A stretch of 64,000 nt of DNA, taken from contig JBBSVO010000003.1 in the NCBI GenBank assembly GCA_038046805.1, positions 51,120 through 115,119 of the forward strand, read 5' to 3'. This stretch comes from Candidatus Micrarchaeota archaeon. GTDB taxonomy: Archaea; Micrarchaeota; Micrarchaeia; Anstonellales; Bilamarchaeaceae. Positions 26,573 to 61,171 of this stretch are shown here, one piece after another. The notes under the pieces were generated by a model. It saw only the letters and a list, made by a program, of their open reading frames with translations, had not been told where the DNA came from and did no database searches. The position numbers and the translations under genes were made by a program. Position 1 is the stretch's first letter, and each line of letters begins with the position of its first letter.

Positions 26573-26736
26573 GTTATAGATATAGTTAAAAAAGGATATA
26601 AATCCATCAGTTACAATCACCCTTCAGAAAGCGACTAAAAATAGAATAATAGACACAACCCGAAACTGGAAACAAGAAACCATAAAGCTGCTGCATCAAG
26701 CTTTTCGGCTCATTACAGAACTGAAAACCGGAGACC

Positions 26737-26968
26737 CGAAACAGTAAACAGCATGTGCCACACGTGTTCAAGAGCCCTTCAGGGGGAGCGCCCCCTAAAG
26801 TGCTTCACCCCCAGCAACCCCCCATAGCGAATAGACTTCAAGACACAAAACTCGAAACAGTAAACAGCATGTGCCGCACGTGTTCAAGAGCCTTTTTGGC
26901 TTATGGTTTCTAAGGGCAAAAACGCGTCGCGAAAAACCATGGAAAAGCATTGTGCCGCACGTGTTCAA
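26737..26968 (-). repeat. Three copies of TTGAACACGTGYGGCACA (3' end of candidate RNA) separated by structured or heptamer inserts
   Basis: Copies near 26754-26771, 26870-26887 and 26951-26968. Two copies share 40 nt of context. Spacing 116 and 81 nt. Confidence 0.85.
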
Positions 26969-27025: not shown

Positions 27026-27105
27026 ACGGATGGATGATATATACCTTTGTGGTAGTTTTCCTATAATAGTATAGCTTTTAAATACGTGGATGCAAATAGA
27101 AGAAT

Positions 27106-35247: not shown

Positions 35248-35273
35248 ACAATAGCGATTGTTGTGTGATGTTG

Positions 35274-44038: not shown

Positions 44039-44189
44039 TGCGACCGTCGGGATTCGAACCCGAGTCATTAGCTTGGAAGGCTAAGATCCTACCGATGTCC
44101 AAACCAAATGGCAGGTGATGCATTATGGTTTTCGAAAACCTTTTGCCATAAGGTTTCATCAGCCAAAAGGTTTGCTAGACTACGATCGC
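44039..44189 (-). tRNA. tRNA-Gly(TCC) with 80-nt intron at 15/16 (44095-44174)
   Basis: Spliced GCGATCGTAGTCTAG/CGGTAGGATCTTAGCCTTCCAAGCTAATGACTCGGGTTCGAATCCCGACGGTCGCA, BHB-like helix GTCT/GGAC. Confidence 0.93.
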
Positions 44190-44223
44190 TACCGTAAATA
44201 AAAATGCGCAGAAAGGATTAAAA

Positions 44224-44409
44224 TCAGATTCTCTGGTCCGTAGCAGCAAGTCCTGCCCCTACACCTGCGAATATGCCTCCTGCTACCATCCATGTTGCAG
44301 ACGGAATTCCCTGAATTGGATTAATCGGCATGTTGCTGAATAACCCTAGTGCAAGCATTCCACCGCCAACTGCCATCACACCAACTCCGGTAAAAGTCTG
44401 TAAACCCAT
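44224..44409 (-). CDS. Small two-TM Gly-rich membrane protein
   Basis: 61 aa, two hydrophobic segments, GGTGG SD. Confidence 0.7.
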   Translation of the reverse strand: MGLQTFTGVGVMAVGGGMLALGLFSNMPINPIQGIPSATWMVAGGIFAGVGAGLAATDQRI

Positions 44410-44424
44410 ATAGCCACCATTACG

Positions 44425-45078
44425 TTAAAACATCTCTGCAAGCCCTGCGAGGAATTTTTTCGGGTCGTCCGCATTTACGAACGCACTTGCAAGCAAAACC
44501 CCATCAACGCCAAGACCAAGCGCCTTTTTCACGTCTGCGGCATTGCTGACACCAGCACCACACAGTACTGGAATCTTATCGTTTATAGCCTTAATTTTCT
44601 TTATTGTTTCAGTTACGATTTCCGGCTTTGCATTTGAAACGCTAACTCCGCTTCCGATTAATTCGGGCGGCTCTATTGCAATATAAGTCGGATGAAACGT
44701 CGCAACCTGCTCCGCCTCTTTCGGACTTTCTGCACAAACCAGTCCTTCAAGCGCATTTTGATGAAGCCTTTCGATGGTGGCCTTTATTTTGTCATGCGGA
44801 CGAAGTTTTTTCTCTGAGTGATTAACAATAGAACCCTTGACTTTTATTTTTTTAAGAAGTTCCGCTGGAACCGAACCAGTGAATGCACCAGGACTCTCGG
44901 CATCAACGTGCTGTGCGAAAACGTCTGAGAACCTCTCTGCTGCATCCTTGAGAAATGGTGCTGGAGGACAAATAACGATTCTCACTCCGGTTTCCGCAAC
45001 TACTTCGCTGACAATGTCTGTAAAATAGAGTGCTTTTTCAAGCGTTCGGTCATATGTCTTCAGGTTAAGGACGATCAT
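44425..45078 (-). CDS. tpiA: Triosephosphate isomerase (archaeal type)
   Basis: NLKTY, NHSE, IEPPELIG, GAG, GVLLAS. Confidence 0.97.
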   Translation of the reverse strand: MIVLNLKTYDRTLEKALYFTDIVSEVVAETGVRIVICPPAPFLKDAAERFSDVFAQHVDAESPGAFTGSVPAELLKKIKVKGSIVNHSEKKLRPHDKIKATIERLHQNALEGLVCAESPKEAEQVATFHPTYIAIEPPELIGSGVSVSNAKPEIVTETIKKIKAINDKIPVLCGAGVSNAADVKKALGLGVDGVLLASAFVNADDPKKFLAGLAEMF

Positions 45079-45136
45079 AATTGAATATTAGAAGGTAAAG
45101 AAATAAAAGAGGATTGCAACCCTAACTTATATATTC

Positions 45137-45342
45137 GCTGGAGTCGCATAACCTGGTAGTGCGTCGGTCTCGAACCGATTTTCGAGCAAACCGATCCCTT
45201 TGGGATTGTAGGTTCAAACACAAGCCTTTTGGATTCCAAAAGCATTAGGACAAAAGGCTGGTGCTTATCCAAAATCAAGGAGAAGCAAACGGAACCGTTA
45301 CGCGAAACGGAAAACCAAAAACTGAAAATCCTACCTCCAGCG
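45137..45342 (+). tRNA. tRNA-Ser(CGA) with introns at 37/38 (45175-45188) and 59/60 (45219-45328)
   Basis: Acceptor GCTGGAG/CTCCAGC, long variable arm, helices CTCG/CGAG and TTCA/TGAA with 3-nt bulges. Confidence 0.92.
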
Positions 45343-45455
45343 TTTTGTTTTACAAAACGCGGTAGCCTGGCAGCAGCCAAGTCTGCCGGCGTTTTATTTT
45401 CTATTTCTCAGCCAAACCACTACCTTTATAAATAACAAACGACAAATATACATAT

Positions 45456-46703
45456 ATGACAACTCATAGGCAATTGTCACTTCCTGGTCTGAACGCAACC
45501 CCCGGAACACTTGCAAGAATTCACCGGATAGATAGAAGACTTACTCAAAAATGGGACGGTTTTAATGCACATATAGCACGTATTCTGGGAGAACTTGAGG
45601 ATGCAAGCTCGGCATCTCTTTACGTGGTACGCACAGAAAAACCGAACGGAACTGCAACTCCAGAAAGCGAACTGGCATTTTCATCAAAAGTAGTACGAAC
45701 CGTATTAACTGAAGAGCAGGCGAAAAGGAGAATCCCCCCATATAGGGTAGTTTCTGCAGAAGATAGTTGGGGCAGTTTAAGCGATCCTGAAAGAATTCAT
45801 CCTGCAACCACACTACGGGGAGGCATGTCGTTTATATTTAGCGATGGAAGAACAGCATCTAGTTATACTACTGATGAGGGGGATTATACTCATCGTGAAA
45901 TTGAATTAATAACACCTTCAACAACCAACCAGATACTTCTTCCATTATATACGGAAGTAGAAGGAGAAACTCCTGAAAGATTGGGGGTTCTCTCTTTTGA
46001 AGGAAAAAACCTTTTTTGGAAAGATTCGACCTGCGTAACCGAAGCAGAGAAGATGCTGGAGATTATGCTTATCATGTCCCTCCTCTCAACAGGCATATCT
46101 GCAAAACTTGAATCAGGAACAGACGCACTTACAAAACTCATGAGAAAAAAAGAGTTCAAGAGTGAACTAAGCCGAGTGCTTAGAGCAGTCAAAGAAGGAA
46201 CAATACCGGATTTTTCAATTGTGATGGCGGACATAGATTATTTCAAAAGGATAAACGACACACATGGGCACCTTGCCGGAGATGCAGTTCTTGAAATAGT
46301 CGCAGATGTTCTGATGAGCAGCGTCAGGAATGAGCAGAAAGTTGCACGAATGGAAGGAAGGAACGCCAATACCGAACATCCGATTTTTGATGTCGTTGCG
46401 AGATATGGGGGCGAGGAATTTGCCATAATCGCCATAACCGGCATAGACGGAGCGTTAAAGATGGCCGAAAGACTCAGGAAATCCGTGGAAGAAGCATGCA
46501 GAGAAATAGAAGGCAAAGTCTCGGGAGTAACCTGTAGTTTCGGAGTCGCAAGCCTTTTGCAGTGCATAAATGGCATTTCAGATATCGGAGCAGAAACAGG
46601 GCGGCTTATAATGGAAAGAGCGGACCAGATGCTTTATCAGGCAAAACGAAACGGCCGCAATAGGGTTGAACCGCAACCTGCGCCAACTGATTGGGCATTA
46701 TGA
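45456..46703 (+). CDS. GGDEF-domain diguanylate cyclase with N-terminal GAF-like region
   Basis: DALTKL, DIDYFKRINDTHGHLAGD, RYGGEEF, RADQMLYQAKRNGRN. Confidence 0.92.
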   Translation: MTTHRQLSLPGLNATPGTLARIHRIDRRLTQKWDGFNAHIARILGELEDASSASLYVVRTEKPNGTATPESELAFSSKVVRTVLTEEQAKRRIPPYRVVSAEDSWGSLSDPERIHPATTLRGGMSFIFSDGRTASSYTTDEGDYTHREIELITPSTTNQILLPLYTEVEGETPERLGVLSFEGKNLFWKDSTCVTEAEKMLEIMLIMSLLSTGISAKLESGTDALTKLMRKKEFKSELSRVLRAVKEGTIPDFSIVMADIDYFKRINDTHGHLAGDAVLEIVADVLMSSVRNEQKVARMEGRNANTEHPIFDVVARYGGEEFAIIAITGIDGALKMAERLRKSVEEACREIEGKVSGVTCSFGVASLLQCINGISDIGAETGRLIMERADQMLYQAKRNGRNRVEPQPAPTDWAL

Positions 46704-46759
46704 TGTTGTTCCGCTATCCGAAGAATTTTTAATTCCAATCCTGCAACGTTTTCTTATTA

Positions 46760-47048
46760 GCCCCAATAGCTCAGGGCCCTTTTGACTTCTGAAACCTAAA
46801 GACAAAAGCGTTACATTTGAAAAACGTTGTTTCGTTTTTCAAAATTTTGAACGATTCGTCGTTCAAATCTTCGGAAAAGTCCTTAGGCAGCATAAATCAA
46901 AAGGGACGAGTAATGGTAGAGCGCCTCTCTCGTACTTGCTGGTTCTGAGTCAAGCGTTTTGTGTCTTATTATCCAAGACACTGAACTGGAAACTCGAAAC
47001 CGGAAACAGGCAAGGAGGAGGTCGGGAGTTCAAATCTCTCTTGGGGCT
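46760..47048 (+). tRNA. tRNA-Thr(CGT) with introns at 15/16 (46775-46913) and anticodon loop (about 46935-47012)
   Basis: Acceptor GCCCCAA/TTGGGGC, D-loop helix GCTC/GAGT. Removing 139+78 nt gives a 72-nt cloverleaf. Confidence 0.9.
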
Positions 47049-47095
47049 ATTTGTATTTTATAATTATCAGTTCAAATGAATCTGGATGTGTTTAT

Positions 47096-48034
47096 ATGGA
47101 AGTTCTGGTTACTGGCGGAGCCGGTTTCATCGGCTCGAATATTGTTGAAAGATTAATTTCAGAAGGTCATTCAGTTACTGTCATAGACTGCCTTAACACG
47201 GGAAGTGAAAACAACCTCGCAGGAGTGCGGGACAAAATCAAATTCGTTCGTGGGAATTCCGGCGAGATTGAAAAACTCGTAAGTGGAAAAAAATTCGATA
47301 TCATCCTCCATCAGGGGGTTTACTCTACTTCTCCATTATATAAGGAAAACCGCTTGCTCACCGCAAAGGCTCTGGAAGAATTTATCAACATACTTGAATA
47401 CTGCACTAAGAACGGAACGCGACTGGTGTTCGCGTCGTCTTCTTCTCTTTACAATGGAGTAACTCCTCCGCACCGCGAGGATGCTCAAATCAATGTAACA
47501 GACTTTTACAGCGAAGCAAGACTGGCGATGGAAAGAGTCGCAACATTATACCATCAGCTTTATGGAACGAAAATAATTGCCCTCAGGTATTTCAGCGTTT
47601 ACGGGCCTCATGAAGAGGCAAAGGGAAAATATGCAAATCTCATAACCCAATTCTTATGGGCAATGATGAAAAACGAGGCACCCGTAGTCTATGGAGATGG
47701 TTCACAGACAAGGGATTTCGTCTTTGTCAGCGACATCGTTGAGGCAAACATGCTTGCAATGAAAAGCCCGCTTGAGTTCGGAATTTTCAATGTTGGAACC
47801 GGGCGCTCTGTTTCGATAAACGGGATGATTGAAATTTTGAACAACAAGCTCGGAACGAAACTACCAATAAAATACGTTGAAAATAAGGTGAAGAACTACG
47901 TGGCGCACACGCAGGCCGACACCTTGCTGACAAAAACAAAGCTAGGCTTTTCTGCAAAGACATCGCTTGAGGAAGGAATCGAAAAACTGATTGAATACAC
48001 CAAGTCTCGGGCGTATACTGAACCAAATAAGTAA
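47096..48034 (+). CDS. NAD-dependent epimerase/dehydratase
   Basis: TGGAGFIG, ASSSS.Y, LRYFSVYGP, GDGSQTRDF. Confidence 0.93.
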   Translation: MEVLVTGGAGFIGSNIVERLISEGHSVTVIDCLNTGSENNLAGVRDKIKFVRGNSGEIEKLVSGKKFDIILHQGVYSTSPLYKENRLLTAKALEEFINILEYCTKNGTRLVFASSSSLYNGVTPPHREDAQINVTDFYSEARLAMERVATLYHQLYGTKIIALRYFSVYGPHEEAKGKYANLITQFLWAMMKNEAPVVYGDGSQTRDFVFVSDIVEANMLAMKSPLEFGIFNVGTGRSVSINGMIEILNNKLGTKLPIKYVENKVKNYVAHTQADTLLTKTKLGFSAKTSLEEGIEKLIEYTKSRAYTEPNK

Positions 48035-48204
48035 TACCGATTCGGAATATTAGCATTTATCTCGATGGTTCAGTATCCAGTGATCTGCTGATCACTAGCT
48101 GTTCACCAATGTGGTGAACATAGATCGAGCCATCTACAACTTCGAAGAAGTTGGAGAGACAGAGAATGCAATTCTCTGGGAAAAACTTATTTGGCTCGGG
48201 CGTA
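48006..48204 (+). repeat. Stacked-palindrome insert with 10-bp direct repeat, terminal inverted repeats and BHB-like junction
   Basis: CTCGGGCGTA at 48006 and 48195, CCAAATAAGT/ACTTATTTGG, at least five internal hairpins. Confidence 0.7.
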
Positions 48205-48253
48205 AACAGGGATAAGCAAAAACCTTTTAATCTCCAACTTCTTTTATGATACT

Positions 48254-48904
48254 ATGACAGAACTTGCAAAGAAAGTCGAGGATGGAAGATTATCCTCTAT
48301 CCTGAATTCCATTCAGATAGCTCTGGACCATTACGACGATATATTCTCTGATTTTGACCCATCTCCATTTAGTCAAAGAATGCTTTCAGATGATTTTCTC
48401 AAGGAGATGCAAAAGAGATATATAGAAACTAAAAAAGGGGAGTTTGAAATACGGTTTTCACTTCCAGCTTCAATAAGAGATGTAAAAACAGAGGGCTTGG
48501 TAAAGAAACGCCTTAAAGATTATTTCCACAAGCAGATAAAGAACGTGGATGTGGAAGTTGAAAAAAGACAAAATGCGGGAATACAACGCGCAGGATTTGG
48601 ATTCGTAGTTCTTGCAATAGAGCTTCTCATGACAGTATATGGATTCACAGCATTTCCTCTTAATTTCCTGGGTGTGATATTGGTTCCGGCTGGATGGTTC
48701 GGAATGTATTCTGGATTTGAAATGTTCTTTGACCATCCGAAAAAACTCAATGAGCAGAAGAAATTCTACAAAAAATTCCACGATGCGATATATCTTTTTG
48801 TTTCGGAAGAGGAGATTCTTGAGAGCATAGAGACTACTTCAGATCAAAAACCACTGGATGTCGTGATAAAGGATATTACAGAACGTGAAAAAGGAAAACC
48901 ATGA
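48254..48904 (+). CDS. Membrane protein (2 TM)
   Basis: YDDIFSDFDPSP...R.LS.DF, two hydrophobic segments, AAACCTTTTAA promoter. Confidence 0.8.
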   Translation: MTELAKKVEDGRLSSILNSIQIALDHYDDIFSDFDPSPFSQRMLSDDFLKEMQKRYIETKKGEFEIRFSLPASIRDVKTEGLVKKRLKDYFHKQIKNVDVEVEKRQNAGIQRAGFGFVVLAIELLMTVYGFTAFPLNFLGVILVPAGWFGMYSGFEMFFDHPKKLNEQKKFYKKFHDAIYLFVSEEEILESIETTSDQKPLDVVIKDITEREKGKP

Positions 48905-48961
48905 TTCTAAACAGCACGCTTTAAATCCCCTTTGCGACGCTAATTTTAGAATAAATTAAAC

Positions 48962-49073
48962 GGGGTCATGGGCTAACCTGGTAGACTACCGGCCTTGGGC
49001 GTCGGTGATTAGAGTTCAAGAGCCAGTCTAGACGCAAAACTCAAGACTGGAAACACAAATCTCTATGACCCCA
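48962..49073 (+). tRNA. tRNA-Pro(TGG) with 39-nt T-loop intron (about 49020-49058)
   Basis: Acceptor GGGGTCA/TGACCCC, TAGAG-TTCAAAT-CTCTA restored on removal, junction ambiguous by 2 nt. Confidence 0.9.
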
Positions 49074-49122
49074 ATTTTTCTTTTTTTAATATGTGATCCG
49101 CGCTAGCGATGCGCATTCTGCG

Positions 49123-49560
49123 TTAGTTTTCCGGCATCCTTACAAGAATGAGAGACTGACCGGATTTTGAACCAGACCGTGGTTTTACTACAAAACCTTC
49201 TTTTTCATACAGCACGAGCGCACTTTCATTTTTTGGGCTGACTCTCAGGTAAACTGGTTTCCCAGACTTGAATAGAGGTTTGAGCAATGCCGAACCAACC
49301 CCCGTCGAACGAAATTCGGGAAGAACACCAAGACCCTTTACGGAAATTGAGCCGCCCGTTCCCATGCTCTCTGAAAAATTAATAAATCCTACACGTTTGC
49401 CATCAACCTCAGCAACAGTAACTTTATCGTCTTTTTTGATTATTGTTTCCGCATCGATTTCAGGGAAGATCGCATGAATTAATTTGGTTATTTCGATTAG
49501 TTCGTCTTTGCGCATTGGACGGATTTTTATTTCCTCCGACCGATGTTGTAGATGTCCCAT
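49123..49560 (-). CDS. GNAT acetyltransferase (RimI-like)
   Basis: LGVLPEFRSTGVG, N..A..LYEK.GF. Confidence 0.88.
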   Translation of the reverse strand: MGHLQHRSEEIKIRPMRKDELIEITKLIHAIFPEIDAETIIKKDDKVTVAEVDGKRVGFINFSESMGTGGSISVKGLGVLPEFRSTGVGSALLKPLFKSGKPVYLRVSPKNESALVLYEKEGFVVKPRSGSKSGQSLILVRMPEN

Positions 49561-49692
49561 TTCAAATCCCGGTTTCTCTCTAATTCATCAACTATCTGAC
49601 TCAGCAAGGAAGCTTTTATTTGTTTATACTGGTCTGGAGTAGGAAGAACATTTTAGAGCATTCTTGAAATTTGCTTTTTGTATTTCATTTTT

Positions 49693-50397
49693 CTATTTCT
49701 CGAAATGCCTTGTTGCCGAGTCAAGCATTGCTCTGAATTCTGCAAGAAGTTCATGAACAAGATTTAGTGCAATATGTTGCATCGCACTTGATTTGTTACC
49801 TGGGTACTTCCGTAGTACGTCATAAAATAGTTTGTAGTACGCAATTTCGAACTCGGTTTCAGAAACGTGAATGTCTGGAAGGTCTGTATATGTACCAATT
49901 AATAGATTGGTCTGGAACGCACCAGTTAAATTCTCGTAACATCTCGGTTCCAGCCCATTTTCTACCGATGTAAAGGACGAAACGGGTTTTAGCTTGATTA
50001 AAAGATTGCCAATAGCTCGATCCAGTCTTATCAACCCAGATATGCTCAAAAAAGAAAAACCAGTTGGAGAATTATTTTGAAAGTTATTGAAATATATTGA
50101 TGCGACTACTGTGGAAGTGTCCGTATACAAGGAGAAGCATCCGACTTCGATTCGTGCTGAACCACTTTCAATACTCACACCAGCAGTAGTTCTTTCAGTA
50201 ATTATAGCTGAGTTGACTCTGCGCAAATCTTGCATACGTCTGAATTGCTTTTCAATTTCTGGTTCTGACCTTGAGAAATATCGTTTTTCTTCAGTCTTTC
50301 CTATAACGCCATCTAATCTTTCGAACGTTTTTGTGCATATACGCTCTGTTCTTCTAAATTGTTCGCAAATTCTAGGACGATTTTGGAAGTGGTTCAT
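49693..50397 (-). CDS. Hypothetical protein
   Basis: Long ORF after beta-rich gene. Confidence 0.65.
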   Translation of the reverse strand: MNHFQNRPRICEQFRRTERICTKTFERLDGVIGKTEEKRYFSRSEPEIEKQFRRMQDLRRVNSAIITERTTAGVSIESGSARIEVGCFSLYTDTSTVVASIYFNNFQNNSPTGFSFLSISGLIRLDRAIGNLLIKLKPVSSFTSVENGLEPRCYENLTGAFQTNLLIGTYTDLPDIHVSETEFEIAYYKLFYDVLRKYPGNKSSAMQHIALNLVHELLAEFRAMLDSATRHFEK

Positions 50398-50407
50398 ATA
50401 TACCAAC

Positions 50408-51073
50408 CTATCTTATCGGAACTTCAATACCAAGCTGCGCGTTTGCCGCCAGCAGTTTTCCATCCTCTGGGTCTGACATTCCGAAAGCCCTTACAAAGAA
50501 ATTCGCGACTTTTGTTTTCAGGGTTAATTGCACTGTTCCTCCGGCATTTGGAGATTCTTTTCCCTGTACAAATGGGACAATCGCTGTTGCTGAAACAGAG
50601 ACTGGGTCAAAACCCAAATCCGCACCAGCAAAAACCGGAGTGTTTCCTGTTATATCCAGTTCTGCACCTGCGCGTAGACCCAAGGAACTTGAAGACAAGT
50701 GTGCTACTCCGCCGAAAGCCCTTTGATTTCCAAGAAACCGACTTCTTTGTGCATACGCGGTTAATCCAAACCCACCGGGGGCAGACAGAGTAAGGTTTGC
50801 CCCTGCTTTTTCAAGCGAGGTCGCTCCACTCTCTAAATCACCGGCAAATGCAGTGCCAAGCCCTAGATTAGCACATCCAAATGTAAGCGAATGCTCAATG
50901 CCCAAACCTGCTTCATGTGTCTCTCCCTTTGACGTTTGATAAAATGCCTGAGTTGATAAACGGCTCTGTAATGAATCAGCATTTGCCTTGAATGGCAAAA
51001 GCAGCGTTGCTACAGACGCCACGACAGTAATTACTTTTCCAGAGCTTCTGCTAACCGTTTGTAAACTAACCAT
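50408..51073 (-). CDS. Secreted beta-strand-rich protein (beta-barrel-like)
   Basis: Signal peptide ending KANA, alternating Gly/hydrophobic strands. Confidence 0.65.
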   Translation of the reverse strand: MVSLQTVSRSSGKVITVVASVATLLLPFKANADSLQSRLSTQAFYQTSKGETHEAGLGIEHSLTFGCANLGLGTAFAGDLESGATSLEKAGANLTLSAPGGFGLTAYAQRSRFLGNQRAFGGVAHLSSSSLGLRAGAELDITGNTPVFAGADLGFDPVSVSATAIVPFVQGKESPNAGGTVQLTLKTKVANFFVRAFGMSDPEDGKLLAANAQLGIEVPIR

Positions 51074-51179
51074 AAGCACATCACCTTTCTAATTTTTCTA
51101 CAGCAGTTTGAACTGCAGTTTATGATATTATCTACGACATACCCAATATTTAAATGCTATTGGTGGCAATTATCACCAC

Positions 51180-51929
51180 ATGTACGAGTCGACATTAGAG
51201 GAGCTAGGGCTTACCTTAAACGAATCTAAGGTTTACGAGGCGCTTTTGTCGTTAGGCAGTTCTTCTATCGAGCAAATTGCAATTAAATCCAAGGTTCACA
51301 GAAGAAATATTTACGATGTTCTTGCCAAGCTATTAGAAAAAGGGTTAATCTCCGAATCATTCGACTATAATAGAAAAGAGTACCGTGCCATTCACCCATC
51401 GCGTTTGCTGGACTTGATACAGGAAAAGGAGAATAAACTACAGATTATTCTGCCAGAATTGGAAAAACGTTTTAGTCACTACGAGGAAGAGGAAACTGCA
51501 TATATGTACAAAGGAATTAACGGTTTTAAGCAGTATCTACAAGACATCCTAGACGTAGGAGAAACAGCTTATTTTATCGGGGCAAAGGGATTTTGGCTTG
51601 ATCCAAGGCTCCAATATTTCCTGCCAAAATTCGAGATAGAACGAAAGAAACTCGGAATAAAATTCATGCACATCTTTGATTATGAGGTAAAGGAACAGAA
51701 ACCGGAGATATTGAAATTGGTTGGCCGACCATACAAATTCCTGCCGAAGGATTACTCAAGCCAGACCTCAATTGATTTCTTTGGTGACAGAATAGTTACA
51801 TTCGTTGGAGTTAAACCCGGCCAACTTGACGAGGAACCCACCCAGTTCGTAATGCGAAGCAGACGATTAGCAGACGGTTACAGAAAATTCTTCAATTTTA
51901 TGTGGGATAAACTTCCATTTGACTATTAG
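51180..51929 (+). CDS. TrmB-family regulator
   Basis: LGLT.NESKVY.ALL...RRNIYDVL..L.EKGLI. Confidence 0.9.
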   Translation: MYESTLEELGLTLNESKVYEALLSLGSSSIEQIAIKSKVHRRNIYDVLAKLLEKGLISESFDYNRKEYRAIHPSRLLDLIQEKENKLQIILPELEKRFSHYEEEETAYMYKGINGFKQYLQDILDVGETAYFIGAKGFWLDPRLQYFLPKFEIERKKLGIKFMHIFDYEVKEQKPEILKLVGRPYKFLPKDYSSQTSIDFFGDRIVTFVGVKPGQLDEEPTQFVMRSRRLADGYRKFFNFMWDKLPFDY

Positions 51930-51934
51930 TTACC

Positions 51935-52609: not shown

Positions 52610-53546
52610 CGATTTCCTTGGTCTGTGTTGGTCCTTCCTTTACCCCAACTCCCTTTTGCGCTTTCTCCTTTGCTTTTGTATACTCGTCCATTATTTGGGT
52701 ATAACGCTCATCAAAACGCTTAATCAACGAATCACCGAGTTTGTTCTTCGTGAAGTGATCCGCTTTTGCAGCCAGGGCAATAGAATTTGCAAGAGCACGG
52801 GCGATTTTTCCTCGCACAACCTTGGGTGATGCGGAAATACGAACGTGCTGGAATATGATTCCGTGCTTTGGCGGATCTATTTTTCTGTTCTTCAAATGCT
52901 TGAAAAGGGCCTTTTCAGCACCAAGAACCTGAATAGTGCTTGATGGAAGTATTGAAAGGCGGGCAAGTGAACCAACATGTGAAATAAGTTTTGCCGCGAT
53001 ATCCGAACCTGCAACTGCCGAGATATTTGGACAGACTTCATTGGTCAGTGTTTCAAGATATTTCGCATACTGATCCTTGAACTTGTATAGCATGAGAAGC
53101 TGATTTGCAAAGTGTCTGCACTGTGTAAGGTCCTCTTCTGTAAGGGGTGCGCCAATGCTTTTACCACATAAAGAGATTATTTCGTTTGATTTTCCGCTCC
53201 CGACGATTTTGGACAATTCTTTGGCATCAGGATTTGTTTTATCAAGAACCATGATAATCTCGCAGTATTTCCTGCGGTCTTCAAGCCTTAACTCCGGAAG
53301 ATAAATGCCATATAATTCTTCAAGTCTTTCCCCTAAGGCATTCGCAACTTGAACTGTCTCGTCTATTACTCTGGACACATTGGCAAGTAAAATGTCCTTT
53401 CCGCCAAGAGCCTTGGTTGTGGCTTCTGCTGCTTTCTGAAGAAACATCGAACGCTTGTTTGAAGGGCTGAAACCCTGTTTTTTGGGCTTCTGACCCGATC
53501 TGTTAGGACTACCGCCCCTGCTTCCTGTTGAATTTGGTCTAGGCAT
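52602..53546 (-). CDS. nop5: C/D sRNP protein Nop5 (Nop56/58)
   Basis: PSSTIQVLGAEKALF, PPKHGIIF, GKIARALA. Confidence 0.93.
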   Translation of the reverse strand: MPRPNSTGSRGGSPNRSGQKPKKQGFSPSNKRSMFLQKAAEATTKALGGKDILLANVSRVIDETVQVANALGERLEELYGIYLPELRLEDRRKYCEIIMVLDKTNPDAKELSKIVGSGKSNEIISLCGKSIGAPLTEEDLTQCRHFANQLLMLYKFKDQYAKYLETLTNEVCPNISAVAGSDIAAKLISHVGSLARLSILPSSTIQVLGAEKALFKHLKNRKIDPPKHGIIFQHVRISASPKVVRGKIARALANSIALAAKADHFTKNKLGDSLIKRFDERYTQIMDEYTKAKEKAQKGVGVKEGPTQTKEIGG

Positions 53547-53674
53547 AATGAGATAGTTGGCGGAATACTATTTAAAGCATATCTTATCTCAATTATAACG
53601 TGGCGGTTAGCTCCTAGCTTCTAGGTACTAGCCCCTAGCCAAGAGCCAGGAGCCATAAATAACAGGTAGAAACC

Positions 53675-54193
53675 ATGACAGATATAACCAAGCTCACAAA
53701 TGAAACCATAAACAAGGGCGGAGTGCTGGCCATATTTTATTTTGACCTCCATGCGACCTCAACGGACATGCTGCAGCAACTTGGAGCCGGATTTATACAG
53801 AAATTACTAAGCGAACCAGGAGTTGTAACTGCATTGGGGGAAATAGACGAACCAATAGAAGCAGAGGCTAAAGAAGGAATTGACAGAAAGATGCTATCCA
53901 CAGCAATCGAGGTAAAGATTCTGGTGAAATCATTTGCAGATATAGCAAGGATATGTGCTGTATATAGCCCATTCTCTATTGAAATCCTGCGACCAAGCGA
54001 AATAAAACTCCCATTGGACAAGGCACACGAACTCCTTACAAACATTTCAACCACGACGTTTGGATATAAAAAACACATCGTTGAAAGACTTTCAACAAAA
54101 GAAGAGCTGGAGAATTACAAAAAAGTAATCCAACAAAAGATGGAGTTAGGAAAGAAGTTGCTTGAAAAAAAGGATGGCGCTGATAAAAAGTAA
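53675..54193 (+). CDS. Hypothetical protein
   Basis: Y.P.SIEIL.P motif, upstream of KaiC-like ATPase. Confidence 0.75.
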   Translation: MTDITKLTNETINKGGVLAIFYFDLHATSTDMLQQLGAGFIQKLLSEPGVVTALGEIDEPIEAEAKEGIDRKMLSTAIEVKILVKSFADIARICAVYSPFSIEILRPSEIKLPLDKAHELLTNISTTTFGYKKHIVERLSTKEELENYKKVIQQKMELGKKLLEKKDGADKK

Positions 54194-54207
54194 ATTGAGG
54201 GATTTGC

Positions 54208-54906
54208 ATGCTTAAACGCGAATTTGTGAAAACCGGAATACCAGGACTGGACGAAATATGTGGTGGAGGATTTCCACGGGAATCAATCATAACTCTGAGC
54301 GGGCCTACTGGATGCGGAAAAAGCACATTTGGTATGCAATTCCTTGTAGAAGGTGCATTGAAATACAAGCAACCAGGACTTTACATTTCAATAGAACAGG
54401 ACAAACAATCAATGTTCCTGCATATGAGCGGGTACAAATGGGACCTTGAAAAACTTGAAAAAGGCAAACAACTCGTGTTTTTGGATTATCCGCTTCACGA
54501 AGTAGACCAATTCATGCAGCAAAACAGCGCAATTGCCGAGATAATCAATACAACCGGGGTTGAACGGGTTGTAATAGATTCCGTAATGCCGCTTGCGATT
54601 ATTTTTGCAAATGACGACGAACGAAAAAGGGGATTCCTCAGCCTGATAGATCATATAAGAAAATGGGGTGCGACCGTGTTGATTATTTCAGAGGATACGC
54701 CGGCGACTACCCAGGATGTGTTGCCGGATACAAGATATGGGATTGAAACGCTCAGCGACGGCTGGATGCATATATACTTTCTTTATGATAAAAGCAGGGA
54801 ACGTAAAAGAGCAGTTGAAATAATCAAAATGAAAGGTGTTGCCCATTCGAGCAAGATATACCCGCTTGAGCTTGACGATGATGGTTTTAAAGTGAATCGG
54901 GAGTAA
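54208..54906 (+). CDS. KaiC/RAD55-like RecA-superfamily ATPase
   Basis: TGIPGLD....GG.P, GPTGCGKS, VVIDS, IKMKG. Confidence 0.92.
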   Translation: MLKREFVKTGIPGLDEICGGGFPRESIITLSGPTGCGKSTFGMQFLVEGALKYKQPGLYISIEQDKQSMFLHMSGYKWDLEKLEKGKQLVFLDYPLHEVDQFMQQNSAIAEIINTTGVERVVIDSVMPLAIIFANDDERKRGFLSLIDHIRKWGATVLIISEDTPATTQDVLPDTRYGIETLSDGWMHIYFLYDKSRERKRAVEIIKMKGVAHSSKIYPLELDDDGFKVNRE

Positions 54907-55432
54907 CGATTATTCCGAAAACGGATTTTCCGATTTTGCTGCTGGCAGAGATACCGGAACTGCAATCGATAATGATTCGTTTATCGGTTTTTTTGAACCG
55001 CTCGCTGTTTGGTTTGTCTTCTGCACCAATGATTATGTCAAAAACCTCTCCGGCATCTCCCTTAAAATTTTTTCCAATCCGCCCTACGAGAAGTCTCTTT
55101 TTTTCTACAAAGCCGGATAAAACCAATTTTGAAGGAAGAGGAACAACAACGCGCGCTTTTATTTTGAGAAGCCGCTTGATTAGTTTTTCACTGCCAGTTG
55201 CTGCGGCGCCCTCAACCTGGATATTTACAACATAAGTCAGATGGTCGTATATATCGAAATTCATCTCATTTCCGTGTTCGGCATCAAGATCGACAATGTG
55301 GATAAGTTTAATCCCTTTTTTCTTCCATTCACGCGCAAGCTCTGTTGGCTTTCCAATGAGAATAAGCGAACCCTCTGCTGATTTGGAGAACGCCTGCTTA
55401 TCTTTGACATATATCAGGGGAATCTGCATCAT
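54887..55432 (-). CDS. Truncated/degenerate HisA-like protein
   Basis: IP.I......, P.ELA..W...G.KLIHIVDLDA...G..N. Confidence 0.7.
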   Translation of the reverse strand: MMQIPLIYVKDKQAFSKSAEGSLILIGKPTELAREWKKKGIKLIHIVDLDAEHGNEMNFDIYDHLTYVVNIQVEGAAATGSEKLIKRLLKIKARVVVPLPSKLVLSGFVEKKRLLVGRIGKNFKGDAGEVFDIIIGAEDKPNSERFKKTDKRIIIDCSSGISASSKIGKSVFGIIVTPDSL

Positions 55433-56775
55433 GAATTCACTTTTTCAGTTTTATTTTTTACCATATTTATCCTTGTAATTAAAGCTTGCATAATTGGAGG
55501 GGTTACGATAGTTGTAAGCAAGGCCATGGTGGCCAATATCGAATATTCTGCCGGATTCAGGATTTTCGTTGTCAAACCTATCGCAGCAACTATAAGCGCA
55601 ACCTCTCCGCGCGGTGCCATGCCAAAGCCAACTATAGCGGCTTCTAGCTTGGTTAGGCCAGAGAAGAATGCTGCGATCCCGCAGCCAATTACTTTTGTGA
55701 ATATCGCAAGAACTGAAATAATCAAAATCGGCACCAGGAAAATTTGTAGGGCATTTACATCCATCAGCATCCCGAGCGAGATAAAAAATATCGGCATGAA
55801 CAGCATCTCAAGGCCGTATGTTTTTTCTTCAATTTCCTTGTTGTGCCTGCTGCTGTTCAGGATTATTCCTGCCATGAACGCGCCAACTATAGCCGAGAGA
55901 CGTATGAATTCTGCAATATATGAATAGAATAAGACCAATGCAAGAACCATCAAAAATCGTTTTGCGTCCAGTTCCTTCTTGTCCAGGTATTTGACAAAGT
56001 AATTACCCGAGATTACGGCACCTGCAAGAAACACAATGGCTGTGATGAAGGTAGTAATCAATGAAATTGCAGTCGCATCCTGCCCTCCAACCCCGGTTAT
56101 GTTTATTACGAATGACAGAACGAGAAGTGCAAGGATATCATCAAGCACTGCTGCACCAATTATGATTTCTGCAAAATGCTCGGACATTAATTTGAATTCT
56201 TTTAGAATCGCCACCGTAACACCGACCGATGTTGCGGTTAGTGCCGCGGCGACAAACATGGAATATACAAAACTTCCTCCTGTTGAGATTGCGTAGAAGT
56301 AACCTACTACAAAAGGGATTACTACGCCAGCAGAAGCAACAAACAGGTTGTCGAATGCGAATATTTTCTCAATCTTGTTGTGCATGCCGACTTTAAACAA
56401 AAGAACGATTGCACCAAGCTGCGCAAAGACGCTGATAACACTTTCAAACCTTAGTATAATAGGTTGGTTCGCTGGAATGCTGAATGGAAGATTTAAAGTT
56501 CCAAGAAACTCCCATGATATGGATAAAAAACTAGGGCTTAATAGAACCCCCAGTACCATGAGAATCATAACCGTCGGTTGTTTGGTATATACCACCACCA
56601 ATTCCCCGACTACTGCCAGAAGAAGCAGGAAAACTATTTCGAAATAGATATGCTTTTCTTCCTCAACCTCTCCAAATACACTGGTCCTAACTATTGAAAT
56701 TACCAAAAGTAGGAATATACCCAGTACCAACAATGCGATAGTCGGTAATGCCTTTTTTATAGTTTCCTGAATCAT
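55429..56775 (-). CDS. Cation:proton antiporter (CPA2/NapA-like)
   Basis: ATSVG, AAVLDD, GAF.AG, PRGEVAL, many TM segments. Confidence 0.93.
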   Translation of the reverse strand: MIQETIKKALPTIALLVLGIFLLLVISIVRTSVFGEVEEEKHIYFEIVFLLLLAVVGELVVVYTKQPTVMILMVLGVLLSPSFLSISWEFLGTLNLPFSIPANQPIILRFESVISVFAQLGAIVLLFKVGMHNKIEKIFAFDNLFVASAGVVIPFVVGYFYAISTGGSFVYSMFVAAALTATSVGVTVAILKEFKLMSEHFAEIIIGAAVLDDILALLVLSFVINITGVGGQDATAISLITTFITAIVFLAGAVISGNYFVKYLDKKELDAKRFLMVLALVLFYSYIAEFIRLSAIVGAFMAGIILNSSRHNKEIEEKTYGLEMLFMPIFFISLGMLMDVNALQIFLVPILIISVLAIFTKVIGCGIAAFFSGLTKLEAAIVGFGMAPRGEVALIVAAIGLTTKILNPAEYSILATMALLTTIVTPPIMQALITRINMVKNKTEKVNS

Positions 56776-58115
56776 TCAAATTTCACCAATCTTTCAATCG
56801 CATCCTTCACAAAAACAAAATCCTCTTTTCCGCTTTTCATATCCTTTAGCGTGATTTTGTTTTCCTTTGCCTCGCGCTCACCAACTACCGCAAAGAATGG
56901 CATACCCAGAGAATTTGCATAATCCATCTGCTTTCTCAGGTTGCGCTCATTGAGATCAGTTTCCGTTGCGATACCAGCCGCCCTAAATTCTCCAGCTACC
57001 TTTGCCGCATAATTATAAAACTCTGGTTTTACACAACCAACAAATACCTTTGTGTAGGTTTTAGCAGTTCCGCCCGAATTGTTCTTCGCATTGCGTTCTT
57101 TGATAAGGGTTATGAGCCGCTCGATTCCGATTGAGATTCCGATTGCGCAATCGGGCTGGCCATAAAGACCTAAAAGCTTGTCATATCTTCCTCCGCCTGC
57201 GATTGTCCCGATTCCGTCAGAAAGTTTTATTTCAAATACCGGGCCTGTGTAATAGCCCAATCCACGGACCATCGCCAGATCAACCACCACTTCAAATCCA
57301 GCAGAATCGCACAATGAAACTATTTCGCGAAGCTCTGCAACACCTTCTGGACAGACATTCTCAACTGCGCGCAACTTATCCTCGTTCTCCCCGCTCATTT
57401 TCACGAGTTCAAGAACTGTTTTTGTTGCCTTTTTACCTATGATTCCTTCAAGCTCCACGCGGACTGCAGCCTCTCCGATTTTATCTGTTTTGTCAAGAAC
57501 CCGCAATATATCATTTATATTATCGCCCATGTCCAGGTCATCCACAATCGCGTCCATGATTTTGCGGTTATTTAGCAGGATTCTTGGATTTTCAAATCCA
57601 AATCCAACAAGTGATTCTCGAGCCACGGACAAAACTTCTGCCTCTGCACGCATAGACTTGCTTCCTATGACATCAATATCAGCCTGCCAGAACTCGCGGA
57701 ATCTTCCGCGTTGCGGCTCTTCTTTTCTCCATACATTGGAGATACAATATCTTTTGAATGGCTTTGGCTCTGCGGTATTTGATGCAACCCTTGCAAGCGG
57801 GACGGTAAGATCGAATCTGAGGCCGTATTCGTTCTTTCCGATTTTGTTCTCGCTGTTCTCGCCGTTTTCGCTTTTTTCCGTATTTTGTTTTTTTCCGCTT
57901 CCGCTCACGATTTCAAATATCTCGCCTTCAATGTCTTCTCCTGCCTTTGCTCTAAGAGTTTCGAGATATTCCATAGCCGGAGTTTCAAGCGGCCTGTAAC
58001 CATACTTACGGTACACGGCTTCGATCTTAGCGAAAACCTCATTGCGCAGTATCATATCCTCTGGGAGAAAATCCCGCATTCCTTTAGGGGTTGATTTTGA
58101 CGACATAGGAATCAT
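56772..58115 (-). CDS. hisS: Histidyl-tRNA synthetase
   Basis: PKGMRDFLP, LRFDLTVP, GRFREFWQ, RGLGYYTG, GGGRYD. Confidence 0.97.
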   Translation of the reverse strand: MIPMSSKSTPKGMRDFLPEDMILRNEVFAKIEAVYRKYGYRPLETPAMEYLETLRAKAGEDIEGEIFEIVSGSGKKQNTEKSENGENSENKIGKNEYGLRFDLTVPLARVASNTAEPKPFKRYCISNVWRKEEPQRGRFREFWQADIDVIGSKSMRAEAEVLSVARESLVGFGFENPRILLNNRKIMDAIVDDLDMGDNINDILRVLDKTDKIGEAAVRVELEGIIGKKATKTVLELVKMSGENEDKLRAVENVCPEGVAELREIVSLCDSAGFEVVVDLAMVRGLGYYTGPVFEIKLSDGIGTIAGGGRYDKLLGLYGQPDCAIGISIGIERLITLIKERNAKNNSGGTAKTYTKVFVGCVKPEFYNYAAKVAGEFRAAGIATETDLNERNLRKQMDYANSLGMPFFAVVGEREAKENKITLKDMKSGKEDFVFVKDAIERLVKFE

Positions 58116-58131
58116 ATTAACACCAAACCAA

Positions 58132-59193
58132 TTAATACCTGACCTTGGCGGATTTTACCGCATCTTCCAGAGCATACATAACCCGAAATGCAAGCTCCCA
58201 TAGGTCTGCGCAACCAGAAAGGTCTGGAAGCAAACCCAGGGGGGTTGGGGTTCTCAAAACTGCGTACTCGGGATATTTCCCAAGTTTTGACTTCAGTCTT
58301 AACAGATCATTAAATGCATTTATTGGAGGGAATGGCACGCAAAGCGGGCAAAAATCAGATATGGATTCAACTGCCTTAAATGCCAGCCTTGCAATCTCCG
58401 GGATTTTTCCGCTATCGAATTCAAATGGGGAAACCGCATAGGCAAGCTCCGGACATAAAATGCCAGGCAACAGAAGATAGAATTCACTGTAGTTCCATGA
58501 AGCAGATGGCCGCACTTTTCCCTCCAATGCCAATTTTTCTATATCCTCGAGCGAATACTTTCCATACTTGCCTCCGTAAAAGGTTTGCGGAATAAGAAGG
58601 CGCCCTTCTTTCACGAATAGCTGGCCTATCTTCTGCCCGCTTGACTTGAGATTCATTAGCACAATCTTTGAATAAAATGGAGACAAGTCACGGACATATG
58701 ACACTTGCGGTATCCTGCCTGCCTCCTGCCTAAATGAATCTGCCATAAGGTCTCCGCGCGCATTCCTTAATTCGTCCAGCGAGGTATAAGGTTCTGGCTT
58801 AGGGACGGTTTCGCGAAGTACAATTGCATTATCAACATCCCAAACATACTGAGATATGAAACTATCCTTGTAAGGCGCAGGCATCCAGCAATCCAAAGTA
58901 AGTTCAAGAATCCCAAAAGGAACCCCGAGTTCTCTTGCAATGGCAAAACCCATCAAAGCCTCTGCATCCAACCGTGCGAGTTGCCGTGGAAGAACAACTC
59001 CACACAGGTTTAGTTCCAGAGAATCGAAATCCACGCCCCATCTTTCCTTTAGGTATTTGCGTGCCTTTGAAGAACAATCCGAGGATGCTCGCTGTCTGGT
59101 TTCTTCCCCAAACTGCTCTTTTGAAAGAACGTATGGGAGCCTAAAGGTTTCCCTGCAGTATTTTTCAGCAATACCACGGATATCACTTCGCAT
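58132..59193 (-). CDS. Hypothetical protein downstream of radical SAM
   Basis: 353-aa ORF, no recognised motif. Confidence 0.7.
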   Translation of the reverse strand: MRSDIRGIAEKYCRETFRLPYVLSKEQFGEETRQRASSDCSSKARKYLKERWGVDFDSLELNLCGVVLPRQLARLDAEALMGFAIARELGVPFGILELTLDCWMPAPYKDSFISQYVWDVDNAIVLRETVPKPEPYTSLDELRNARGDLMADSFRQEAGRIPQVSYVRDLSPFYSKIVLMNLKSSGQKIGQLFVKEGRLLIPQTFYGGKYGKYSLEDIEKLALEGKVRPSASWNYSEFYLLLPGILCPELAYAVSPFEFDSGKIPEIARLAFKAVESISDFCPLCVPFPPINAFNDLLRLKSKLGKYPEYAVLRTPTPLGLLPDLSGCADLWELAFRVMYALEDAVKSAKVRY

Positions 59194-59297
59194 ATCCGAA
59201 ACAGTGAAGTAAATCCCTTCCCATTCTCTGTTCCCGATTCTCAGCTCCTGGTTTCAGGTTTCCCGCTCCAGGCCTCCTGTTTTCTGTTTTGTACATT

Positions 59298-60284
59298 TCA
59301 AATCCCTCCTTTTTGTTTTTCAGTTTTTTCTCTTTCTGAACGTGACAAATAGTGATACGCCGGACAATCAAGCGGATTTCCCTTTGATGAAAACTCCCTT
59401 TCTCGCACGAGTTCTCCGTCCTCATAGCGGCCTATTGCATTTTCAGGCTGTGTGAGGTAGATACATGGATAGATATTGCCGTCAACCCCGATGGTAAGGC
59501 CGCCATCCCTTGAACCTGCACCACAGCAAAATTGTTTTTTCCTGAACTGAGTGCCTAAAGAGCCTGCAGCTGAAAGATAGATAGCCGGATAGCGGATGCG
59601 TAATTCATCAAGCATCCCGAAGAAATTCCCAGTTTCCTGCTCAGTTAGCATTTGCGGACCTTTTCCATTAATCCGCAAGTATCTCAAGAACTGAACCACC
59701 TGCGCGCCCTGACAGATACACTCTTCGGCCATTTGCGGGACAAAATCCAAATTCCTCTGTGTAATAGTGATGCGCATCATCAATTCAAGTCCGCTTGCAA
59801 CCACGCGCCTCGCAGCCTCACGCACGATATCAGAGGAGGTAAGCCTCAGTCCGCTGTTTTCAAAATTCGCGGTCAGGACAACCTGCCTTATCCCAATATC
59901 CCTTATCTCTTCGCACAAATCCGATTTTTCAACAAGAACTCGGCCATTTGTAAGAACAGATGTTGAAGCAGAAGCCTTGAGGATTTCGGCCAATCTTCTG
60001 AATCGCAGAACCTCAGTTGTGCTTGCGAATACGGAAAACCCGGCTTTCCTGAACCTGAGAAGATCTACGATTATCGCCTCTTCGGTTCTCTTGATCCTCT
60101 TTTTATATGCGCCTCCGGATAGCACAAAACACCCAGTGCAGCGCGAATTGCAGGGAGGTTCTGTTTCTGGCAAAAACATATATGTAATTGTGGGGCGCCG
60201 TGCGAATTTCTTCATATATTCCGGAATTGATGCAAATTTTCGGCCGCACGCTGGCGCGCAGGTAGGATTAATCATTTTTTCCAC
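59298..60284 (-). CDS. Radical SAM protein with short SPASM/twitch-like C-terminus
   Basis: CNSRCTGC, TNG, CGAG......I..DG.IYPC......IG...CPA. Confidence 0.9.
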   Translation of the reverse strand: MEKMINPTCAPACGRKFASIPEYMKKFARRPTITYMFLPETEPPCNSRCTGCFVLSGGAYKKRIKRTEEAIIVDLLRFRKAGFSVFASTTEVLRFRRLAEILKASASTSVLTNGRVLVEKSDLCEEIRDIGIRQVVLTANFENSGLRLTSSDIVREAARRVVASGLELMMRITITQRNLDFVPQMAEECICQGAQVVQFLRYLRINGKGPQMLTEQETGNFFGMLDELRIRYPAIYLSAAGSLGTQFRKKQFCCGAGSRDGGLTIGVDGNIYPCIYLTQPENAIGRYEDGELVREREFSSKGNPLDCPAYHYLSRSEREKTEKQKGGI

Positions 60285-60555
60285 CTCGACACCTTCCGTA
60301 CCTCAAATAAGCGCAATTTCTTGAGAATTTCCGCCCGTTTGCCATATCGCTGTCGCTGGCTTTCGCTAATTCAATAATGATGCTATTGGCTCCTGGCTTC
60401 TGGCTACTAGCTACCGGCCAACTGCCACTAGCAATTCGGATAATTATTTTTCCATTCGTTTCAATTCCGAGAGCCTCGCGTATTTCCAGCGGTAAAACTA
60501 GACGCGCCTTTGAATCAAGCGCAATAACGTATTTTCGTTGCTCAATGAAGTACAT
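60268..60555 (-). CDS. AbrB/MazE/MraZ-type DNA-binding protein
   Basis: LDSKARLVLP.EIREALGI, with in-frame heptamer-derived insert. Confidence 0.85.
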   Translation of the reverse strand: MYFIEQRKYVIALDSKARLVLPLEIREALGIETNGKIIIRIASGSWPVASSQKPGANSIIIELAKASDSDMANGRKFSRNCAYLRYGRCRGGKND

Positions 60556-60663
60556 CCCTTTTTGTGAAGTACATCCCTTCCTTTGTTCACCATATCCATT
60601 ACCTGTTTCTGATTTTCTTTGCTTACAGATATTGTATCTTTCCCACTTAATATACGTTTCGGT

Positions 60664-60972
60664 TTATTGATTCAACACCAGCAAAAAGCTTGTGTCTTTA
60701 TTCGCACTTAGCGAATGCACTGCCTTTTTCTTCATGTGGATAAACGTGCCAGGAAGCATCGGGATTCCCTCTCCCTCTAGAGTGAACGTGCCGTTGCCTT
60801 CTATAACATAGACTAACCCTTCTTTGGTGGACGTATGCTCGCCAAGCTCCGTTCCCTTTGCCATGCAGAACAACGTAACATCCACTTTATCGCTTTTTGA
60901 TATTACCTTGCTCACAATGCCGCCGTTTGAATACGAAATCATTTCCTTCAGGTTTTTCCATGTTTTTGGCAT
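60664..60972 (-). CDS. Cupin domain protein
   Basis: TLF....G..L.EHTS...G...VIEG.G...HSL.A. Confidence 0.9.
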   Translation of the reverse strand: MPKTWKNLKEMISYSNGGIVSKVISKSDKVDVTLFCMAKGTELGEHTSTKEGLVYVIEGNGTFTLEGEGIPMLPGTFIHMKKKAVHSLSANKDTSFLLVLNQ

Positions 60973-61031
60973 GACGGGAATTCACGATTTACAGTTTATA
61001 TTTGTTTCCGTTCATAATTCTTAGATGTTAT

Positions 61032-61171
61032 AGCCCCGTCGTCTAGAGTCTTGTGTCCAGCGTCTAGAGTTTCAAAAATACGAGACTGACGACTCAAGAC
61101 ACGAGACGGACTTTGGTCAAGGATGACAGGCTCTGGACCTGTATACGTCGGTTCGAATCCGATCGGGGCTA
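61032..61171 (+). tRNA. tRNA-Gln(CTG) with 67-nt intron at 15/16 (61047-61113)
   Basis: Acceptor AGCCCCG/CGGGGCT, helix GTCT/GGAC with bulges AGA and TTT, 73-nt spliced product. Confidence 0.93.

Follow-up and report, generated by a model that had tools for sequence, protein, structure and literature searches.

How can tRNA genes that are all broken by inserts still yield tRNAs, and how did the inserts come to lie in them? The question is raised by a stretch of 64,000 nucleotides from a Candidatus Micrarchaeota archaeon (contig JBBSVO010000003.1, positions 51,120 to 115,119; here called the window), which corresponds to C3:51120-115119 of the source genome (G000; 1.2 Mb, 86% complete). How intron DNA gets into the tRNA genes of archaea is described as an open question in the available parts of two reports (10.64898/2026.10.13.758758; PMC4090602). 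We consider it probable that the genes in question are single-copy tRNA genes whose inserts end in bulge-helix-bulge (BHB) motifs and are excised by EndA, the splicing endonuclease, and the ligase RtcB, and that many of the inserts are repeats, present between genes as well, which spread by landing at splice points.

The tRNA genes were sought with an intron-tolerant spliced aligner, which permits inserts at any position and does not use the BHB motif, with intact tRNAs from two relatives (30 loci each) as templates; nine loci in the source genome were then curated by hand and one permuted gene was added. In the window this gave five tRNA genes with seven introns and no further tRNA genes. The initial annotation had listed the same genes, for Gly, Ser, Thr, Pro and Gln, each with a non-canonical intron, and every intron position and length given there was recovered by this BHB-independent route. 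Its warning that standard finders may miss such genes was borne out: at the gathering cut-off Rfam gave no tRNA match in the window and ARAGORN gave one partial call, and genome-wide there were four Rfam matches over the cut-off and 14 ARAGORN calls, seven of them with the correct anticodon. By our search the genome holds 41 tRNA genes with 40 distinct anticodons (two are CAT), all of which fold as cloverleaves once the inserts are removed. Only tRNA-Ser(GCT) is intact; the other 40 carry one (13 genes), two (21 genes) or three introns (6 genes). The total is 73 introns, with 27 at position 37/38, 19 at 15/16, 18 at 58/59 or 59/60 and 9 elsewhere, so that 46 are non-canonical and 36 genes carry at least one non-canonical intron. 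Their median length is 53 nt, 35 introns have at least 60 nt, and the longest has 205 nt. One low-scoring candidate on contig C9 proved to be 16S rRNA and was dropped. No gene was detected for Asn, His, Glu(CTC), Arg(CCG) or Ser(GGA), and a further search of the unmasked genome at a lowered intron cost, permuted forms included, gave only noise with at least five inserts; separate trans-split halves were sought solely through T-arm motifs. The five missing anticodons are in line with the completeness of the genome. With regard to the loci C7:97785-97938 and C6:32696-32910, tRNA-Ile(TAT) is present and Ile(CAT) was not found, and the BHB-predicted join of the elongator Met tRNA gives a D-loop without the usual GG pair.

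The ends of the introns are those that a splicing endonuclease would need. A 4-bp BHB central helix can be reached at 44 of the 73 introns, compared with 3 to 14 of 73 in 12 shuffles that had the same sliding freedom as the real introns, and the pairing at the intron ends is therefore not due to chance. At the curated junctions 39 introns have four central pairs, 26 have three and eight have two. In the window, three or four central pairs are present in six of the seven introns, the exception being that of tRNA-Pro, and in all three 15/16 introns the D-stem positions 10-13 form the central helix with 4/4 pairs, just as the initial annotation had read them. Folding is stronger than in shuffled sequences for six of the seven window introns (z -2.4 to -4.5), with z -1.4 for the 14-nt Ser intron. 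No Rfam match to a group I or II ribozyme core was found in the window, and the introns measure 14-205 nt. As for the enzymes, EndA is encoded by a single gene of 393 amino acids, of which residues 3-393 align end to end with EndA of ARMAN-2 (archaeal Richmond Mine acidophilic nanoorganism 2; PDB 4FZ2, E 1e-137); other EndA types align only partially (E 1e-23 or weaker), and its nearest named records are almost all from Micrarchaeota. It retains the triad Y237, H252 and K283 and, in the ARMAN-specific loop, Y161 and K162, which the available part of PMC12397907 names as essential, and also R276 and W390. Judged by sequence, it is thus of the epsilon2 (ARMAN-1/2) type, which agrees with the broad-specificity endonuclease proposed initially; cleavage of relaxed motifs in vitro has been demonstrated, in the parts of the reports available, for the ARMAN-2 enzyme only (PMC12397907, PMC3239211). 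RtcB is also encoded (E 7e-166). The epsilon2 EndA would cut both bulges and RtcB would join the exons. By these sequence tests the window inserts belong to the EndA-spliced BHB tRNA introns, and we think that the introns are almost certainly spliced in vivo.

The bodies of the introns are in many cases related to each other and to DNA elsewhere. Links to another intron above the best shuffled score were found for 40 of the 73, and these links cross isotypes and positions; partners with at least 70% identity exist for 19 introns and with at least 80% for four (none in shuffles), and the highest identity between any two introns of the source genome is about 81%. Moreover, 22 introns match DNA outside tRNA genes, with no such match in five shuffled sets, and 36 of the 45 non-tRNA places matched by introns lie outside long open reading frames (ORFs). 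Very probably, repeats are the source or the filler of most long introns.

Three kinds of repeat can be distinguished. Family A is an element of about 80 nt, which the window contains in the 15/16 introns of Gly and Thr, in the 59/60 intron of Ser and as a free copy at 26888. Over 59 distinct copies, covariation is seen in a 5' hairpin and in a crossing helix of 4 bp (0 of 500 shuffles); the crossing helix, with 96% of cells paired, is absent from the search model, and the 5' hairpin was part of that model and the copies are related, which biases this part toward structure. A rod-like fold derived from 13 sequences was weak (91 of 500 shuffles) and was replaced by this hairpin-plus-pseudoknot fold. 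The lengths of a T tract and two A tracts vary together (rho 0.99 and 0.81; 55 of the 59 sequences parsed), which suggests that the tracts may form base triples. The second kind is an array of 7-nt units: a period of 7 was seen in 14 introns and periods of 5, 6, 8, 9 and 10 in none, with a density per 10 kb of 25 in introns, 3.0 between genes and 0.27 in ORFs. By eye, intergenic 7-nt-periodic tracts of another consensus were noticed in the window at 53581-53636 and 60378-60435. The third is an 18-nt palindrome with 44 sites in the genome versus none for the control, which often appears as a double hairpin nested in family A. An instance of filling is given by the comparison between orthologs of tRNA-Lys(CTT), where the same-genus comparison genome G001 has an empty form of 83 nt and the source genome an intron of 141 nt with a 58-nt double hairpin inside. 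Both shorter families are largely intergenic (30 of 45 sites for the palindrome, 50 of 90 for the heptamer).

The five window genes show how these parts are combined. The tRNA-Gly(TCC) gene (44039..44189, minus strand) has one 15/16 intron of 80 nt (44095..44174, minus), which is a family A element (75 bits) with a 4/4 central helix and a 5-bp intron helix; a reading of this intron as a hammerhead or C/D-box RNA was rejected since the motif is lost in sister copies. In the tRNA-Ser(CGA) gene (45137..45342, plus strand, as are all the following) a 14-nt intron at 37/38 (45175..45188; central helix 4/4, exon helix 6 bp) is accompanied by a 110-nt intron at 59/60 (45219..45328), in which a diverged family A head is followed by a 7-nt array (45304-45324) and which is 73% identical to the 58/59 intron of tRNA-Arg(TCT). 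The tRNA-Thr(CGT) gene (46760..47048) has a 139-nt 15/16 intron (46775..46913), composed of family A with a nested double hairpin at about 46816-46868 and 75% identical to the 17/17a intron of tRNA-Lys(CTT), and a 78-nt intron at 37/38 (46935..47012), a 7-nt-array hairpin with a 3/4 central helix. The tRNA-Pro(TGG) gene (48962..49073) is interrupted once, in the T-loop, by a 39-nt hairpin of the 7-nt array (49020..49058) with a weak BHB: two of four central pairs form at 58/59, and the junction is uncertain between 57/58 and 59/60. In the tRNA-Gln(CTG) gene (61032..61171) the single 15/16 intron of 67 nt (61047..61113), again a 7-nt-array hairpin, has a strict BHB with a 4/4 central helix, an intron helix of 10 bp and an exon helix of 3 bp. 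These introns are not an assembly artefact, because the Gly gene and most of the Ser gene recur letter for letter, introns unchanged, in contigs from DNA sequencing runs that are not marked as the source; the runs containing the window region are mostly groundwater metagenomes.

Copies of the intron elements also stand free. The intergenic family A copy at 26888..26953 (plus; E 1e-8, 65 bits) is flanked by exact 18-nt direct repeats (26870-26887 and 26951-26968). A second free intron-type element lies at 26772..26852 (plus) between direct repeats of 35 nt (26737-26771 and 26853-26887), and in its first part it shares 92% identity with the G001 tRNA-Lys(CTT) intron at 59/60. The two thus stand in tandem at 26737-26968, in a promoter region. 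G001 has no ortholog of the window region 25100-28800; a similar element is free there at another locus (L198), between diverged repeats.

Comparison with relatives shows how quickly the introns change. Twenty tRNAs were parsed in G001, with junctions in relatives placed automatically and some shifted by a few bases; two were excluded for unlike exons (Phe 84%, Ala-TGC 69%). These two genes (G001 Phe-GAA and Ala-TGC, L127 and L129), which do not resemble their source-genome counterparts, may be misbinned contigs or transferred genes. For the remaining orthologs, exons are 96-100% identical in 16 of 18, and intron positions differ in 14 of 18, which supports a recent turnover of introns. The intron set or sequence differs in all five window genes: for example, the Gly(TCC) ortholog has exons 99% identical and no 15/16 intron, and the exons of tRNA-Pro are 100% identical. 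In addition, joining Val(CAC) of the source genome at its BHB-predicted junction yields the D-loop that G001 has without an intron. Matches to a family A covariance model were obtained in 41 of 73 genomes sampled from the family, and weak ones in 7 of 77 others. When 30 best-match loci were fetched and that of the source genome was set aside, 23 of 29 parsed as tRNA introns at several positions; two of the others resemble tRNA genes missed by the parser and four do not. Across 99 family genomes the number of Rfam-visible tRNAs, a proxy based on at most 44 scored candidates, ranges from 1 to 44, with at most 10 in 21 genomes, and palindrome counts fall as it rises (rho -0.48; -0.57 within a genus of 40 and -0.57 on 23 genus means, kinship being not fully corrected); G033, G090 and G004 clearly depart from this trend.

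One gene goes beyond interruption. The tRNA-Ala(GGC) gene at C4:76042-76300 (minus strand; L144) is permuted, with the last 14 bases first, then a 16-nt spacer and then positions 1-59; it has two introns, its termini form a 4-bp helix at 59/60, and it lies directly after an Sm gene. No linear copy was found in the assembly. G001 has the identical layout after the same Sm gene, and the pattern matches 2 of 176 genomes of the order. The G001 gene contains three copies of family A, at 15/16, at 37/38 and right after the 59 cut; the last begins precisely at the 59/60 cut, within the trailer that would be discarded.

Several observations weigh against the reading of these inserts as spliced introns built from mobile repeats. 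No link to any other intron was found for 33 of the 73, and repeats are therefore not the explanation for all of them; 51 have no match outside tRNA genes. Some intron-rich relatives (G033, G090 and G004) have no palindrome copy, so the palindrome is not required. The free copies could be escaped introns instead of donors. No suitable mobilising enzyme was found: the sole reverse transcriptase found is DGR-like (of the diversity-generating retroelement kind) and frameshifted; two of the five genomes tested gave no match to it, and none was seen in G025, which contains 15 family A matches. Only two of four central pairs form in eight introns, that of the window's tRNA-Pro included, and the contigs of one shallow RNA run showed no spliced junction, the contig with the Gln gene being unspliced and possibly DNA. 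This last point would also suit a different explanation, namely that the loci are tRNA pseudogenes broken by repeats and never spliced, with the working copies in the missing 14% of the genome or supplied by a host, and so would the incompleteness of the assembly and the five expected anticodons that were not found. We regard it as highly improbable. There is one gene per anticodon, exons are kept in the same-genus orthologs as the introns change, the BHB excess over shuffles is clear, and EndA and RtcB are intact. Intact duplicates, which the initial annotation had named as the sign of such pseudogenes, are absent from the assembly, where the predicted mature tRNAs match just one 30-nt fragment elsewhere. 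A 30-nt copy of the 3' end of tRNA-Leu(CAG) lies at the end of a contig (C6:279111-279140; L156); two more short copies are close by, and it may be an attachment site of an integrated element. The initial annotation had further spoken of an ongoing intron invasion by repeat elements. The repeat part stands for the introns whose bodies are repeat elements found also outside tRNA genes, though not for those without links, and recent turnover fits it as well; the word ongoing goes too far, given the ceiling of identity between introns and the DNA runs, whose contigs (which drop rare variants) showed no joints skipping the introns or the free element and no empty-site strain.

If the inserts are spliced, splicing would render them nearly neutral, and tRNA genes would therefore accumulate small repeats. 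How the repeats arrive is the least certain step. One explanation is that they are non-autonomous DNA elements, of the kind of miniature inverted-repeat transposable elements (MITEs) or repetitive extragenic palindromic (REP) sequences, moved by a transposase such as IS200 TnpA and landing at random in non-coding DNA, with survival in tRNA genes limited to insertions that chance to create or preserve a BHB. The abundance of the palindrome and its mostly intergenic sites accord with this, as do the direct repeats at the free family A copies and their start after a TCAA-like motif; moreover, the sole Y1 transposase gene found has a double hairpin and three more palindromes immediately upstream of it. 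This gene (C3:134372-135150, minus strand) has no accompanying TnpB; its right end is present a second time at the start of contig C11 (C11:1-55), 90 nt before tRNA-Gly(CCC). However, the enzyme is an IS200 TnpA (103 bits, cut-off 55) and not a REP-associated tyrosine transposase (RAYT; 23 bits, cut-off 80), Y1 genes were detected in only 25 of the 99 family genomes, with a distribution that does not follow palindrome number (p 0.13), and HUH and DDE enzymes are not known to fit direct repeats of 18-35 nt. Inside tRNAs, furthermore, family A has a single orientation, and one copy coincides with a cut at which selection would not be expected to keep it. Traces of target-site duplication were absent at tRNA intron starts (173 versus 180 of 730), and their small excess at intron ends (222 versus 182) can be explained by A-rich bulges. 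We take insertion as DNA elements to be possible and rather doubtful.

Gene conversion among tRNA genes could also move introns, since family A occurs much more often within tRNA introns than elsewhere and the closest pairs often share a position (Gly/Gly 15/16 at 81%, Gln/Gln, T-loop pairs). Yet equally close pairs lie at different positions and differ in their 3' helix bases (Glu 15/16 and Pro 37/38 at 81%, and the Thr-Lys pair named above), and the palindrome and heptamer families are mostly intergenic, so that this explanation fits the same-position pairs only and is improbable as a general one. An origin of the 15/16 introns by duplication of positions 16-27 was unsupported (26 of 114 identical outside the helix), and one family A pattern had no match in viral contigs that might point to a viral donor.

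We lean, with a confidence just short of even, toward the arrival of repeats by RNA capture: a repeat would be captured as RNA at the EndA cut, sealed in by RtcB and copied back into DNA. Entry at the cut as RNA is favoured over DNA insertion and gene conversion because in 21 introns family A has one and the same orientation and its T tract begins 3-9 nt past the 5' cut, with the four helix bases at the 3' end following the host exon, and because in G001 a family A copy starts directly at the permuted gene's 59/60 cut. A bolder version, which we find unlikely as it stands, is that family A and its sister repeats are tiny protein-free mobile RNAs, of pseudoknot or triple-helix form, that enter tRNA precursors through EndA cuts and RtcB and are copied back into DNA. 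If true, protein-free mobile RNAs would create and refill archaeal tRNA introns, which would be a direct mechanism of intron gain.

Other features of the neighbourhood may be added. A strongly folding, MITE-like intergenic element of about 180 nt lies at 48006-48204 of the window between 10-nt direct repeats (48006-48015 and 48195-48204), and parts of it occur at seven other places in the source genome and 15 places in G001 among the matches listed. The reverse transcriptase gene (C11:460-2683, minus strand; L165) is split by a frameshift at a G run, and in G001 and G002 it is likewise broken within a comparable G-rich stretch; upstream of it is an AAC-rich repeat, with a similar repeat in the preceding gene, and from the upstream repeat we take it to be DGR-like. 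The window also holds the genes of DNA gyrase B and A (32928-38993), with an intein in GyrA, and between the Ser and Thr tRNA genes the gene of a GGDEF-domain protein (45456-46703), which is kept in G001 and is unusual for an archaeon.

Among known systems, REP/REPIN repeats with their RAYT are short intergenic palindromes of patchy copy number. The present repeats share with them the many short intergenic palindromes and differ in that a RAYT-type Y1 transposase was not found here. With the class II intrastrand triplex repeats, for example TMECO with its G/C-rich consensus (PMC4666352, available part), family A shares one pyrimidine and two purine tracts of covarying length, the triplex being a prediction here; its tracts are in contrast runs of T and A, it is about 80 nt long, has a covarying pseudoknot helix and resides mainly in tRNA introns, and the available part of the TMECO paper does not treat tRNA. 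Permuted archaeal tRNAs were found reported for Thermofilum pendens only, as tRNA-iMet and tRNA-Tyr (PMC3218864, available part). The tRNA-Ala(GGC) gene shares with these the 3' piece placed first, the BHB join, a short spacer, the single copy and extra introns, and differs in phylum, isotype, the epsilon2 enzyme, the 16-nt spacer, the two introns and the site after an Sm gene; the genome thus extends permuted tRNAs to a second phylum of archaea.

Heavy interruption of tRNA genes is already known from ARMAN-2, Thermoproteales and Asgard archaea. In ARMAN-2 (Ca. Micrarchaeum acidiphilum) 56% of tRNA genes are disrupted, and in crenarchaea up to 87%, by the available part of PMC3239211. The source genome has in common with it the phylum, the enzyme type with its key residues, relaxed BHB motifs, T-loop introns at 59/60, multiple introns and a tRNA-Ile(UAU), and differs in having 40 of 41 genes disrupted; repeat-built bodies, free copies and a permuted gene are not mentioned in the available parts on ARMAN-2 (PMC3239211, PMC12397907). 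For Thermoproteales, transposition of tRNA introns is described, with related introns in different tRNAs and positions and an unknown mechanism (PMC4033280, PMC4090602, available parts), and for one locus in Caldiarchaeum a model based on a mobile element has been put forward (PMC3293823, available part). At 80% identity 28% of the Thermoproteales introns fall into families against four of 73 here by our own measure (19 of 73 at 70%), so the copies in the source genome have diverged further. The summaries of that work (PMC4033280, PMC4090602, 10.64898/2026.10.13.758758) mention neither free intergenic copies nor nested repeats. Asgard families, as far as the available parts tell, have 92-97% of tRNA genes interrupted, a median intron of 22-23 nt, 1.5% cross-isotype families and no arrival route found (PMC11291895; 10.64898/2026.10.13.758758). 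Near-total interruption, D-arm introns missed by finders, repeated gains and BHB enrichment are shared with them, whereas the median here is 53 nt, there are 1.8 introns per gene compared with 2.2, intron families are frequent and are also represented outside tRNA genes, and the Asgard EndA is of another type. A literature search that left subscription journals mostly uncovered found no report of tRNA introns built from repeats, or of permuted tRNAs, in Micrarchaeota. What is new in comparison with these systems is that nearly all tRNA genes of a DPANN genome are interrupted, that the introns are long, and that intron bodies are made from repeat families with copies outside tRNA genes. The tRNA sets of such genomes are badly under-annotated, and with relatives of the introns outside tRNA genes, empty and filled sites, and a load that varies within one family, the question of intron gain becomes testable.

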